A stretch of 64,000 bases of DNA from Escherichia coli O127:H6 str. E2348/69 (GCF_000026545.1 NC_011601.1); one strand, 5' to 3'; positions 36,001 to 45,000 are shown, counted from the first letter of the stretch. Numbers are program-made.

Positions 36001-39000
36001 ATTAATAGCGACAACGTCTATGTTGCTTTTGACTTCAAGTAATCGACGCAACACCAGTCGACCGATACGACCAAAACCATTAATACCAACTTTACTCATG
36101 GTCTTCTCCTGTCAGGAACGTTCGGATGAAAATTGATCCTTTCCAGGCTTAGACCAGGATGGCGGGATGGGCAATCTACATTCTTGCAGTGAAACGTAAC
36201 GTACTGAAAACGGGTGAACAATATTTAATGAAATTTTAAGAAAAGCCCGTTATGTTAACGGCAAATTATGTTAAAGCAGGAAATGTTATGGGAAATAAAT
36301 ACTCAAGGTTACAAATCAGCATTCACTGGCTGGTCTTTTTGCTGGTTATCGTAGCGTATTGCGCAATGGAGTTTCGTGGTTTCTTCCCACGTATCGATCG
36401 GCCCCTCATCAACATGATTCATGTTTCCTGTGGCATCTCAATTCTCGTACTGATGGTGGTTCGTCTTTTGTTAAGACTGAAATACCCAACCCCGCCGATT
36501 ACACCTAAGCCAAAACCGATGATGACGGGACTGGCGCATTTGGGCCATTTGGTGATTTATCTCCTGTTTATTGCGCTGCCAGTGATTGGTTTGGTGATGA
36601 TGTATAACCGGGGCAACCCGTGGTTTGCGTTTGGTTTGACGATGCCTTACGCTTCAGAGGCCAATTTCGAGCGGGTTGATAGCTTAAAGTCGTGGCATGA
36701 AACGCTGGCGAATCTGGGATATTTTGTCATCGGCTTGCACGCTGCGGCTGCACTGGCACACCACTATTTCTGGAAGGACAACACACTTCTACGCATGATG
36801 CCACGTAAACGTTCCTGAAGGATATTTAAAGAAAACGCCTGTACTAAAACCGACCCGTGGTACAGGCGAAGAATACGGGCCTACATCGGAAGCGCCTATT
36901 ATATTTATTTGTATGACAAATAAAACCATAATCCTTGTCTATACGTCCATCTGGCTTATCTTTAATCAATTCACCCGATCTTTGATCTCATCAACGGTAT
37001 CAAAATAACTCAGCGTATAACGTTCAAATCGAACATAAGATTCGATAAATCATGGAGGTTATATGAAAAAACTGGCACTTATCCTGGTTATGGGAACGCT
37101 TGTTTCCTTTTATGCCGATGCCGGGCGCAAACCCTGTTCTGGTTCGAAAGGGGGGATCTCACACTGTACGGCAGGCGGCAAATTTGTCTGTAATGATGGT
37201 TCTATTAGTGCATCGAAAAAAACATGCACTAACTGAAGTGTAAAAGGGGTGCCATGAGAAAATGAATCCGCTAGTCAGATGCGCGGGGAAAATCCCCGCG
37301 CTTGCCCTTACCTGGACGTGCAGGCCATGAGCGCAGCAACTTCCTTATCACCGTCCCGGAACCGCAGTTCGTAGAGCGATTGTCGGGTCAGGAGTGTGAA
37401 TGTCAGAATCGTAATGCAGATAATGAGCAGACACACCACCAGAGCGCTTCATAGCCTTTCTCCTTGCCGGATGGCGGGTAAGAGGCTAAGATCTGAATTG
37501 CTAGGTTCATTCGTTGGCCTCGGTTTGTACTGTAGTGGTCAACAAAAACTGGCCACCGCTTTAGAGTTTTTCCAGTATCGGTTTTCCGATTCATTTGGTG
37601 GCAACCCACCGTTATATTCGTGCGGCCTGAGCGCGTTGTAATACCCAACGATATAGTCCGTTATTTCATGGGCAGCATCGCTGAAGTTCATGTAACCCGT
37701 CACCGGTATCCACTCGTTTTTCAGACTCCTGAAGAAGCGCTCCATCGGGCTGTTATCCCAGCAATTTCCTCGTTGACTCAGACTCTGTTTGATCTGGTAA
37801 CGCCACAGTAACTGCCGGAACTGCCTGCTTGTATAGTGGCTGCCCTGGACGCCCTTCTAAGAGTCAAGCCGTTATCGGGATGCTGTTGATCTGCCTGTTT
37901 TGATTACGCAGTAATGTATAAACTTCGCGTGAGATATAGCGCTTCAGGCAGCGTATTGCTTCCATTTTTGTATGCCCTTCCGCTACTCGTCTGGCGACAT
38001 ATTCCTTCGTTTTATCGTCAGTTCGCAAACGTCCGATGGCAATGATGTGAAGTGCACTATTTGCAGCACGATCTCCACCCCGGTTAAGTCGATAACGATT
38101 CGTTTTTCCTGAAGATACGGGAACAGGGCTGACACCACACAGTGCCGCAAAACCTGATTCTGATCTTAATCGTTGGGGATTGTCTCCTGCCGTGATCAGC
38201 AACTGCGAAGCGCTTTCGTATCCAATAGCATTACGTTTAATCAGTTCAGGCGCCAGCTCATCGACAATTGCCGCAATCATGACATCCAAATCAGCGATTT
38301 CGTCATGTAACTCGAGATAGCGTCGGGCAAGGGACTTTAATGAAATACGATAAACGTTGGTAACATTGCGGTATTCACTGGCATCAGGCCGCCAGGATCC
38401 CAGAGTCCTGATGAGCTGCATGCGCGTCATATTTCTGAGCTGTTCACGTAATTCATCCGGGGCAGAGATAATATTGGAATGGATAATCTGGAGAGCGACT
38501 CTGCGGGCTGATATTGCTGTTTTTCGGCAAGTTTTTAATACCCGCAGAGACTCAATCATGCCATTGCGCGTTTTGGGTGTGACGGTTCTTATTCCGGAGA
38601 ATGCGGCGTGAGCGGCACATTCAGCATCAATCGTGTCACTTTTACCCCGTTTGCGTCGCTCCATCCGATCTGGCGCAGTCACCTCAAGAACGTCTAACCC
38701 GGCATTCTGTAAATAGCGAAGCAGACCTGATCCATAGGTGCCTGTACACTCAACACCAATTCGCTTTAATGCCCCAAACGAAGTCATCCATGCCAGCATC
38801 TGCCGGTAACCTTGCCGTGTTGTGGAGAAAAACTGGGTCCCCAGAACTTTATTGTTCTGATCTACGACAGCGGCAACGTGCAGATCTTTATGTGTATCCA
38901 CGCCACCCACAACAGCGGTTTCCGTAACTTTACCTGCCATAACAGAGCTCCTGTGAGGAAACAGAGTTGAATCTCCAGACAGATAACCCGGACAGGACAG

Positions 39001-42000: not shown

Positions 42001-45000
42001 GCGAGAGAAGAGGCCAGTGACACAAGGCGTCGTGTACGACGCGGATCACCGAGACGGGCATGTCCAAACTGCTCGTTAGCCCATGAATAACAATCAGAAA
42101 GTACCATAACAGACCCGAAGAAAATGAAATATAAGAGAAGATCAACGGGTGAGGAAAAAGTTCAAAAAATCGCTGCCGGGGAGGAAGGAAACTACCGGAT
42201 GGAAAGAGTCCCCCTAAAGCAGACTGACAGACATCACAAATCCCCGGGTGGGGATTTGTGTATAAGAGACAGCCTCTGTAAGAGCGGTATCGCTTGACCT
42301 TAATCGCTGCCTTCAGTGAGAGGATTCCCATCAGGCGCTGAACAGCTTTATGGTTAATCTGTTTCCCTTCTCGATGAAGAGACAGCGTTACCCTACGGTA
42401 TCCGTATCGGCCTCTATTCTCATGATAAATCTCACCAATACGCTTTTTAACGTCCGCATACTTGTCAGGCTTGCTGAGAGCCTTTAGATGGTAATAAAAC
42501 GTACTGCGCGGTATCTCCGCAGCCCTGAGAAGCTCATCAAGAGGATAAAACTGCCTTAGCTCGTTGAGTACTTTCACTTTTTCGTGGGATGAGCTAAGGC
42601 TTTCAGCTTTTTTAGATACACAAGCCGCGTTTCAAGAAATCGAACTTGCCTTTCAAGATCCTCAATGCGTCGGTCTTTTGACAGCTCCAATGCTGATGCC
42701 GCTTTTTCTGGATCAACTGATATTGCAATGTTTCTTTTGGTGCCAATCTTGAGCGCGCGTAAACCAGCTTCTCCGCGCTCTTCATAAACCTTCAGCCACC
42801 TGGCTACAGAACCACTACCAGCAAGCATAAAGTGAGCAGCAGCCTGATTAAGGGACATGTGCTGCTCGATCACAGCTTTCATGACCTTAATACGCAACTC
42901 AGGAGCAGCACTAACACCTTTAGGTTTGGGAATTAAACCTTTTTCTCCATGTTTTTCATAGAGGGCAACCCATGTCCTGACCTGGGTTCGGGGGACACCA
43001 AAACGTGCCGAGATGATCCTGTAACCATCATCAGTAGTGAAGTAGTGATTCACGACTTCAAGGCGCTTTTCAAAAGGGTATTTTGGCTTTGACATATCAG
43101 GGGCTATTCCATTTCATCGTCCAACAAAATGGGTGCAGTACAGTTGATAGAAATATCGGTCGGGGCCTTCGTCTTTCTGATTCCCGGTTAGCCTGAAAAC
43201 AGAAAGTCTCAGGCACCCGTGAGCATCCTATGTGGTTTCCTTAGGGTCGAAAATAATCACCTGACGAAATTGCGTGCTGTTTTCCAGAATTTTTCGTCAT
43301 TCGGTTTAGTCAGTTTAATCATTCGTTACTCTCGCAAGGCCGTGGATTTGCCGTTGTCGCCAGCGAAGTACGGACACTCGCAAGCCGCAGCGCCCAGACG
43401 GCGAAAGAGATTGAAGGCTTGATCAGTGAATCAGTCAGGTTAATTGACCTGGGATCGGATGAGGTGGCAACGGCAGGGAAAACCATGTGCACTATTGTTG
43501 ATGCCGTCGCGAGTGTCACACATATCATGCAGGAAATCGCCACCGCCTCGGATGAACAAAGTCGAGGCATAACGCAGGTTAGCCAGGCGATTTCTGAAAT
43601 GGATAAGGTGACGCAACAGAATGCTTCTCTGGTAGAAGAGGCCTCAACGGCAGCGGTGTCCCTTGAAGAACAGGCGGCACGATTAACTGAGGCGGTGGAC
43701 GTATTCCGTCTGAACAAACATTCTGTGTCGGCAGAACCTCGCGGAGCTTGTGAACCAGTTAGTTTTGCTACGGTGTGAAAATGTTAAAGGAGGGATCGAC
43801 AGATCCCTTCACCTTTCAGAACGGCATTGATTTTCGAATAGCGTTAATCATCAACTGGCAACCAGAAGAGAACGTCGCATCTACGCGGGTCAGTATTCCA
43901 ATCGGTTCGCCTGCACCATGTCCCGGAACAGGCAGGGCTACCAGCGTGGCATGACGCAGGTCGTCTTTTACAGCGCCAGAAGGGACAAACCACACGTAAT
44001 CGTATTCAACCGTAAGTTGACGAGATAGCGAAGCAGACAGCGTTTCGATACAACCCGAAGGAATTTTACATCCCTGGCTCTGCACTAATGCATCTGAATG
44101 CTGGCGTGGCGCAGTGCCTTCTGGTGATACAACGACCGGCCATTCCAGCACCCGGTTTAGCGTTACGTTCTCCTGAAGTAGCGGGTGATTGGGGCGGACA
44201 ACCAGCTTCAGCGATTCAAGAAACAGCAGTTCGTAATTAAGCCCGTTCATCAGTTCAGGATCTGACATCCGACCAATGCCGATATCGATTTCCCCGGTTT
44301 TTAAACCCGCCAGAATCATAGGGTTACTCATTGTCGCAACTTGCAAGGTCGTCTCTTTTTGTTGCTGATGAAACTGACCTATAACCGAAGGTAATATCCC
44401 TAGTGCCGCAGTAGGTAGCGCACCAACCCTGACGACATCATTATTAAGACCTTCTTTACGATGAAGCGACTGTCCGGCAGTGTTGATGGCGTCAAGAACT
44501 CTGACTGCATGCGTTAAAAATTGTTCGCCGGGTAAGGTAAGTTGCGCCCCCTGACGACCACGCTCAAACAAGCGAGCGCCCGTCAGCTGCTCCAGTTCAT
44601 TCAATGTCTTAGAGAGCGCAGGTTGACTCAAATTAAGGGTTTCAGCCGCGCGCCCCAAAGTTCCTTGTTGTGCGACAGCTACGAATGTATGAAGGTGGCG
44701 CAAACGGATGCGCTGACTAAACAGACTATTTTTTTCCATAAGCGATGTTAAAAACGAAGCGGTGTCGCTGACAAGTGAAGTTGTTTTATTATGATAACTT
44801 GATTGCAAAATATTATTAACAATTAAAGCAACTATGTTACAGCAAAATGGATAATATTGATGTTTTCGCGGCGAGATCACAGTTTGTAAATTCTTCCAGC
44901 CGGAGTGAATGCGGTTACCTACACTCCAGATTACTGACCACTGGAGGCAGACACTATGGCGAACAGCATCACGGCGGATGAGATTCGGGAACAGTTTTCG

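Follow-up and report, generated by a model that had tools for sequence, protein, structure and literature searches.

In the enteropathogenic Escherichia coli O127:H6 str. E2348/69 (GCF_000026545.1, NC_011601.1) the toxin gene hokB is separated from a remnant of trg by a nested pile of four insertion sequences (ISs), comprising IS150, a relative of IS911, ISEc21 and ISEc13, which occupies positions 37526-43142 of the 64,000-nucleotide window analysed here. The pile is very probably the product of sequential transposition into a hokB/sokB-trg locus that had already been disabled, leaving a fossil record of the successive events. Evidence for this history comes from the target-site duplications (TSDs) that flank the elements, from natural genomes that carry intermediate states of the locus, and from the match between the non-coding region of ISEc21 and the two flanks of its target. 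The interval consists of IS DNA throughout and measures 5617 bp, which is also exactly the sum of the element parts, in agreement with the approximately 5.6 kb of pure IS DNA reported between hokB and the trg remnant in a preliminary description of the sequence. All four elements are on the minus strand. Because the region 37000-44000 is matched at 100% by three independent E2348/69 assemblies, the pile is not an assembly artefact.

In the history proposed here IS150 would have entered first, generating a 3-bp TSD within the sokB antisense-RNA gene and the overlapping hokB mRNA leader, and parting hokB from its promoter and 5' leader. A 5-bp frameshifting deletion in hokB and the loss of 1333 bp at trg would have followed in this lineage, after which the IS911 relative would have inserted, with the TSD TAC, into the right inverted repeat (IRR) of IS150, 5 bp from its end. 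ISEc21 would then have integrated into the IS911-like element without duplication, at a target chosen by its own non-coding seekRNA through base-pairing. In a separate event ISEc13 would have inserted into the insK gene of IS150, giving a 10-bp flanking repeat, and an 11-bp deletion in insK would also have arisen; the relative order of the last two insertions is not legible from the sequence. Judged from their sequences, ISEc21 and ISEc13 are the only elements of the pile that are intact and potentially mobile.

Insertion order and natural intermediates

Alignment with uninterrupted reference copies showed that the element families, ends and TSDs initially read from the DNA were correct to the base. 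The nesting, however, is three levels deep and not four as first described (IS150 contains the IS911-like element, which contains ISEc21), because the host of ISEc13 is IS150 itself and not an inner element. The outer ends of IS150 are at 37526 (TGTAC/TGACCCC... once rejoined) and 43142 (...GCAGTACA; also given as ...GGGTGCAGTACA). The rebuilt element is 1432 bp long, corresponding to the 1443-bp type minus the 11-bp insK deletion, which alignment with the intact IS150 of strain 2022H047 places at 40427/40428, and it displays 97.9% identity to the K-12 IS150 (the 11-bp gap counted) and 99.0% to the copy in MRY15-117. Of its two genes insJ is intact; insK is interrupted by ISEc13 and is 11 bp shorter. 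The assignment to IS150 is consistent with the length of the parental type (∼1443 bp), the TGTACTG inverted repeats, the 3-bp TSD and the high identity with insJ/insK.

The IS911-like element, 1249 bp in length, occupies the interrupted segment 37531-40152, 5 bp inside the right end of IS150. At this position strains that contain only IS150 read TGTACTGACCCC without a break, whereas in E2348/69 the TAC-flanked element severs the IS150 tip TGTAC from the remaining IRR. As the tip is parted from the transposase-binding part, IS150 would thereby have been immobilised. The element had been named IS911, which is right with respect to its family and ends but not to its identity. Similar to IS911 from Shigella dysenteriae it is 1249 bp long, contains orfA and orfB, is flanked by a 3-bp TSD and has near-identical inverted repeats; its OrfA differs from that of IS911 at a single residue, and a programmed orfA/orfB frameshift is annotated in the intact 2022H047 copy. 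In contrast, OrfB is visibly more diverged, the overall nucleotide identity to the IS911-annotated element on an S. dysenteriae plasmid is 91.3%, and both termini are TGTAGTGG, compared with TGAAGTGG in IS911. Neither the termini nor the overall identity are those of IS911 proper, PGAP does not apply that name, and IS911-like is the preferable label. The same IS911-like element is carried, at 99.6% identity, by E. coli plasmids of ∼92-95 kb.

Public genomes hold the successive states of the locus (empty, IS150, IS150 plus the IS911-like element, and the full pile), and the order deduced from the TSDs can therefore be verified independently. Among 5426 complete E. coli genomes the site is empty in 4490, while 575 (about 10%) contain IS150 at the hokB-side junction without the IS911-like element; in MRY15-117, for example, an intact IS150 lies between hokB and an intact trg. 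The next state is represented by 2022H047 and 2022H048 (Osaka), which contain IS150 together with an intact 1249-bp IS911-like element and share identical junctions and the same trg deletion with E2348/69. These two genomes lack ISEc21, ISEc13, the second copy of the 10-bp repeat and the 11-bp insK deletion. The TSDs and the IS150-only genomes support the order first suggested, in which IS150 preceded the IS911-type element, and the two classes of intermediate by which the preliminary description proposed that the order could be checked are both found in nature. The order can be read as IS150, then the IS911-like element, then ISEc21 and ISEc13, but it does not extend to the last pair, because these elements have different hosts and no genome contains only one of them.

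An alternative view is that ISEc21 reached the locus already inside the IS911-like element, the composite being mobilised in trans by an IS911-type transposase, and that 2022H047 subsequently lost ISEc21 through precise excision as a circle. The 2.6-kb composite retains both IS911-like inverted repeats, IS110-family elements, to which ISEc21 belongs, are known to excise and form circles (PMC11187229), and strain DCE7, which is unrelated, carries a 99.7% identical IS911-like::ISEc21 composite in a prophage. That 2022H047 lacks ISEc13 and its 10-bp repeat copy, as well as the 11-bp deletion in insK, indicates, however, that its state is ancestral in these respects, and the simplest explanation is that this also applies to ISEc21. 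Composite arrival is therefore very improbable, and successive insertion in situ is favoured. The prophage that carries the DCE7 composite is lambdoid, and IS30 has in turn inserted into the composite, so that the two elements form the base of a further nested pile.

The location of the IS911-like element raises the question of whether the IS150 tip was itself a preferred target, the inverted repeat-like sequence attracting an IS3-family transposase. The IS150 IRR and the inverted repeats of the IS911-like element agree at 15-16 of 27 positions, and the tip motif TGTA-TG is common to both. IS3-family transposases are known to prefer targets similar to their own inverted repeats, and insertion of IS911 next to such sequences has been reported. 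Conversely, a 200-bp query spanning the IS911-like/IS150 junction retrieved only five records from the 5426 genomes (2022H047, 2022H048 and the three E2348/69 assemblies). The junction is thus limited to a single lineage, which offers no recurrence in support of tip targeting and leads us to reject recurrent targeting of the IS150 tip. As this is a single event, a targeted origin for this particular insertion is a conjecture that we regard as unlikely, though not implausible.

The RNA-guided target of ISEc21

ISEc21 is inserted between TTC CAC AGC GAT (F H S D), the last codons of the left part of the IS911-like element (which contains two substitutions compared with the 2022H047 copy), and CAG GGC AGC (Q G S), directly after the codon for the DDE motif's second D in orfB. 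The BLAST segments on either side of ISEc21 abut with zero overlap on the intact IS911-like copy of 2022H047, consistent with integration without a TSD. The encoded protein is identical, residue for residue, to the published ISEc21 transposase (read by eye against the supplement of PMC11187229) and scores 197.9 bits against NF033542, the NCBIfam model for IS110-family RNA-guided transposases (cutoff 140). A PDB sequence search with the protein gave no match at E≤1e-3.

It was previously demonstrated that ISEc21 inserts without duplication under the direction of a seekRNA derived from non-coding sequence upstream of tnp, and that its programmed target, verified experimentally, is the DDE codon of IS3-family transposases (Siddiquee et al. 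2024, Nat Commun, PMC11187229). In the copy described here the predicted guide CACAGCGATC (39110-39119; non-coding nucleotides 102-111) is identical to the left target flank plus 1 nt (exact over 10 nt), while CUGCCCUG (39090-39097) forms an exact 8-nt complement to the right flank CAGGGCAG; within the non-coding region the right-flank complement at the junction is CTGCCCTG (nucleotides 124-131). Both guide-flank matches were attained in only 2 of 5000 shuffles, and they stand in the order reported in PMC11187229, with the bottom-strand match located 5' of the top-strand match. An Rfam search over the pile for a bridge or seekRNA family identified only sok. Joining of the ISEc21 ends would create a TTGACT-17 nt-AATAAT promoter, consistent with the promoter at the circle junction reported for this element (PMC11187229). 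The DEDD-type IS110 transposase, the lack of inverted repeats and TSD, the guide segments that match the flanks and the second-D-codon target are all features expected of an RNA-guided ISEc21 insertion. Nothing mechanistic distinguishes the copy in the pile from published ISEc21, with which it shares two guide segments upstream of the transposase gene, insertion after the second-D codon and the absence of a TSD. The two differ in their hosts, the published copy residing in another IS3-family element.

That published copy, used experimentally in PMC11187229, is a second ISEc21 in the E2348/69 chromosome (within LT903847.1, 1800000-1805500), where it lies between hypF and norW, at the homologous position in an IS3-family element of another kind, and adjoins an IS1397-like fragment. 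Its flanks are CATAGCGAC and CAGGGAAGCC, which show that the guide accepts two mismatches on the left side. As its IS3-family host is not the IS911-like element, the second copy is an unlikely donor for acquisition of the ISEc21 in the pile by gene conversion. ISEc21-like elements with IS3-family flanks were found in 307 genomes, and the same arrangement occurs in the DCE7 prophage and, according to its annotation, in an island in strain H9. ISEc21 points the same way as the disrupted IS3-family orfB at each of the four loci examined, and the integrated element may therefore depend on read-through from the promoter of its host IS for expression of the seekRNA and the transposase. The host's inverted repeats are still intact, and ISEc21 may also be carried along on them.

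IS150 in sokB and the fate of the locus

IS150 is inserted after nucleotide 26 of sokB (K-12 annotation), a position that is also within the hokB mRNA leader. In gb37, a laboratory-evolved derivative of K-12, IS150 lies at the identical sokB nucleotide; its orientation and its GTT TSD are also the same, while the site is empty in the parent, MG1655. Furthermore, IS150 insertions at one coordinate in trg/mokB were reported in five experimentally evolved clones (PMC5419217). These data show that the sokB site is a nucleotide-exact, recurrent hotspot for IS150, and its natural occurrences therefore need not stem from a single event. In IS150 copies of the MRY15-117 type an additional CA separates the left inverted repeat (IRL) from the GTT duplication; this dinucleotide, which is absent from E2348/69, 2022H047 and gb37, could reflect independent insertions or a secondary change. 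A 70-bp IRL-junction query, with or without the CA, matched 1117 genomes, a count that mixes gapped alignments and possibly paralogous hok loci. Occupancy of the hotspot may reflect selection for the inactivation of hokB/sokB; alternatively, the structure of the sok/hok duplex region may attract IS150. Taken together with the idea of ISEc21 as an IS that parasitises other ISs, this reading seems rather unlikely.

IS150 and IS186 were reportedly described by Pedersen and Gerdes in 1999 beside hokA, hokC and hokE in K-12. IS150 insertions in chromosomal hok/sok loci resemble that of E2348/69 in that the hok gene is parted from its leader and promoter and the sok gene is split. The K-12 element next to hokA, however, occupies a position that is not homologous and faces the other way with respect to hok, ruling out a homologous event, and it differs from the sokB element of E2348/69, which was later colonised by three more ISs. 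A literature search on hokB together with IS150 returned nothing.

Both genes that border the pile are defective. The 5-bp deletion in hokB directly follows codon 2 (∼37438-37445, codons 3-5), shifts the frame from the native ATG and leads to an early stop, such that PGAP predicts only a 44-codon open reading frame (ORF) without the native start. It is therefore probable that the toxin gene is dead independently of the IS150 insertion; it is, in addition, parted from its promoter and 5' leader by the pile. Rfam RF01794 (sok) matches are found on both sides of the pile and, together with the Hok ORF, identify a locus orthologous to hokB/mokB/sokB of K-12 that is non-functional here. The 70.3-bit match extends over 43066-43218, of which genuine hok/sok sequence starts at 43146, the remainder being forced onto the IS150 IRL; the second half of sokB corresponds to 43146-43176. 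At trg a 1333-bp deletion (junction 43333/43334) removed the promoter region and 1196 of the 1641 coding nucleotides (73%). An IS-mediated origin of this deletion was rejected as improbable, since 190 bp separate its junction from the nearest IS end, that of IS150, and no microhomology is present there. Both the hokB and the trg deletions are present in 2022H047, and these lesions are therefore older than the ISEc21 and ISEc13 insertions. With hokB frameshifted, sokB split and trg truncated the locus is dispensable DNA.

A dispensable locus is compatible with a purely passive pile-up, in which four random insertions were retained simply because they did no harm and the nesting carries no information on targeting. 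The state of hokB, sokB and trg, the restriction of the IS911-like/IS150 junction to this lineage (five records) and the lack of any obvious preference of ISEc13 for IS150 are in line with this view. It does not account, however, for the location of ISEc21 at a published, experimentally verified RNA-guided target with matching guides, nor for the independent arrival of IS150 at this very nucleotide in a laboratory strain and its repeated appearance in experimental evolution. Two insertions at least, those of ISEc21 and IS150, are thus targeted and not random, which already refutes passive accumulation for these elements and makes it decidedly improbable as an explanation of the pile. The initial suggestion that the region is one where insertions are tolerated fits as a condition for the persistence of the pile, but tolerance is not the cause of its placement, as ISEc21 is guided and IS150 entered a hotspot. 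The pile may also, as was proposed at first, be prone to later rearrangement. A history of successive insertions, some of them targeted, is accordingly preferred.

ISEc13 and the overall structure of the pile

The ISEc13 transposase, a DDE enzyme, is homologous over its full length to the Tn5 transposase in the PDB (E=6e-84) and scores 514 bits against NF033590. The two enzymes' elements are alike in that ISEc13 ends start CTGTCTCTT, similar to the Tn5 inside end, but ISEc13 is a separate 1550-bp element whose 10-bp repeats have the form C-N8-G, in contrast to the 9 bp typical of Tn5. Three ISEc13 copies (the pair in the window and a third from another part of the E2348/69 genome) are flanked by the 10-bp repeats CCTCTGTAAG, CACTTTCGTG and CCAAAAGGGG, all three of which are of the C-N8-G form, whereas in two diverged relatives other bases occur beside the CTGTCTC.../...GAGACAG ends. 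The most economical reading is a 1550-bp element that generates a 10-bp duplication and has a C-N8-G preference. The 9-bp TSD originally proposed, CCTCTGTAA, comprises the first nine bases of CCTCTGTAAG, and 9 bp is only one of the admissible lengths.

A second ISEc13, 100% identical, is located at 26061-27612, and there are ∼30 matching places in the E2348/69 chromosome. The two identical copies in the window (26061-27612 and 40722-42273) are in direct orientation ∼13.1 kb apart, bracketing cybB, ydcA, hokB, the ISEc21/IS911-like part and other DNA, and could serve as a substrate for deletion or behave as a composite transposon. Two of the three copies lie in GC-rich, terminator-like hairpins, CCTCCCAC-TTTC-GTGGGAGG and CCCTCTCCCC-AAAA-GGGGCGAGGG (one at 26040-26070/27605-27640). 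These sites and the C-N8-G repeats hint at a palindromic target preference; no specificity of ISEc13 for IS150 is apparent, and the literature on the element consists of passing mentions only.

The pile is real and was annotated piecewise before this analysis. RefSeq/PGAP names cybB, a small ORF (ydcA), a Hok-family toxin, pieces of IS3-family pseudogenes, an IS110-like element ISEc21 family transposase and an IS4-like element ISEc13 family transposase in the interval, as well as a truncated methyl-accepting chemotaxis protein and ydcI. The features are collected in Table 1.

Table 1. Coordinates of the IS elements, their duplications and the flanking gene remnants in the E2348/69 window.
Feature	Coordinates	Strand	Details
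hokB toxin gene remnant	37308-37452	-	Alignment with K-12 and MRY15-117
hokB leader/sokB, downstream half	37447-37525	-	Rfam RF01794 sok, partial, 43.7 bits
sokB, first 26 nt	37500-37525	+	K-12 sokB annotation and alignment
IS150 TSD GTT, left copy	37523-37525	.	Single GTT at the K-12 empty site; likewise duplicated in gb37
IS150 IRR, outermost 5 bp (TGTAC)	37526-37530	-	Intact IS150 of MRY15-117 reads TGTACTGACCCC
IS911-like TSD TAC, first copy	37528-37530		Within the IS150 tip
IS911-like right part: IRR TGTAGTGGTCAAC... and orfB 3' end	37531-37847	-	100% identical to intact 2022H047 copy
ISEc21 (IS110 family)	37848-39220	-	1373 bp; no inverted repeats, no TSD; clean insert compared with 2022H047 copy
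ISEc21 transposase gene	37864-38940	-	
ISEc21 upstream non-coding region	38941-39220	-	280 nt
ISEc21 seekRNA target-recognition segments (putative)	39090-39119	-	Exact flank matches abutting the insertion point
IS911-like left part: IRL TGTAGTGGCACAC..., orfA (39778-40080), orfB 5' part	39221-40152	-	
IS911-like TSD TAC, second copy	40153-40155	.	IS150 bases 3-5 from its right end
IS150, rest of IRR and insK 3' part	40156-40722	-	Alignment with intact IS150 of 2022H047
ISEc13 flanking repeat CCTCTGTAAG, first copy	40713-40722		End of IS150 segment
ISEc13 core (IS4 family, IS50/Tn5 group)	40723-42272	-	1550 bp; ends CTGTCTCTTATACAC... and ...GATCAAGAGACAG
ISEc13 transposase gene, intact	40734-42107	-	457 aa
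ISEc13 flanking repeat CCTCTGTAAG, second copy	42273-42282	.	10-bp BLAST-segment overlap on intact IS150 of 2022H047
IS150 left part: IRL, intact insJ (42574-43095), insK 5' part	42283-43142	-	
IS150 TSD GTT, right copy	43143-43145	.	
hokB leader, upstream half/sokB 3' part	43146-43218	-	RF01794, 70.3 bits; K-12 alignment
trg 3' remnant	43334-43778	+	Comparison with MRY15-117

Several observations weigh against the history proposed here. The IS150 of E2348/69 and those in the 575 genomes may be independent insertions, given the extra CA and the recurrent use of the site. Since IS110-family elements excise as circles, the state of 2022H047 could in principle have arisen through loss of ISEc21. 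The flanks of ISEc13 also fit a TSD of 8 or 9 bp with two or one extra terminal bases. Finally, expression of the ∼74-nt seekRNA of ISEc21 and of the two intact transposases, those of ISEc21 and ISEc13, is presumed from the DNA.

The stack consists of known elements in a published, annotated genome, and their behaviour is already in the literature; it is thus a tidy example and not a discovery, a clean worked case that leaves current understanding unchanged. It nevertheless illustrates that nested IS clusters can be more than a sign of tolerated DNA, as one layer of the pile was guided by RNA onto the catalytic codon of another IS family, and another occupies a site repeatedly hit by IS150, where insertion inactivates a toxin-antitoxin locus.

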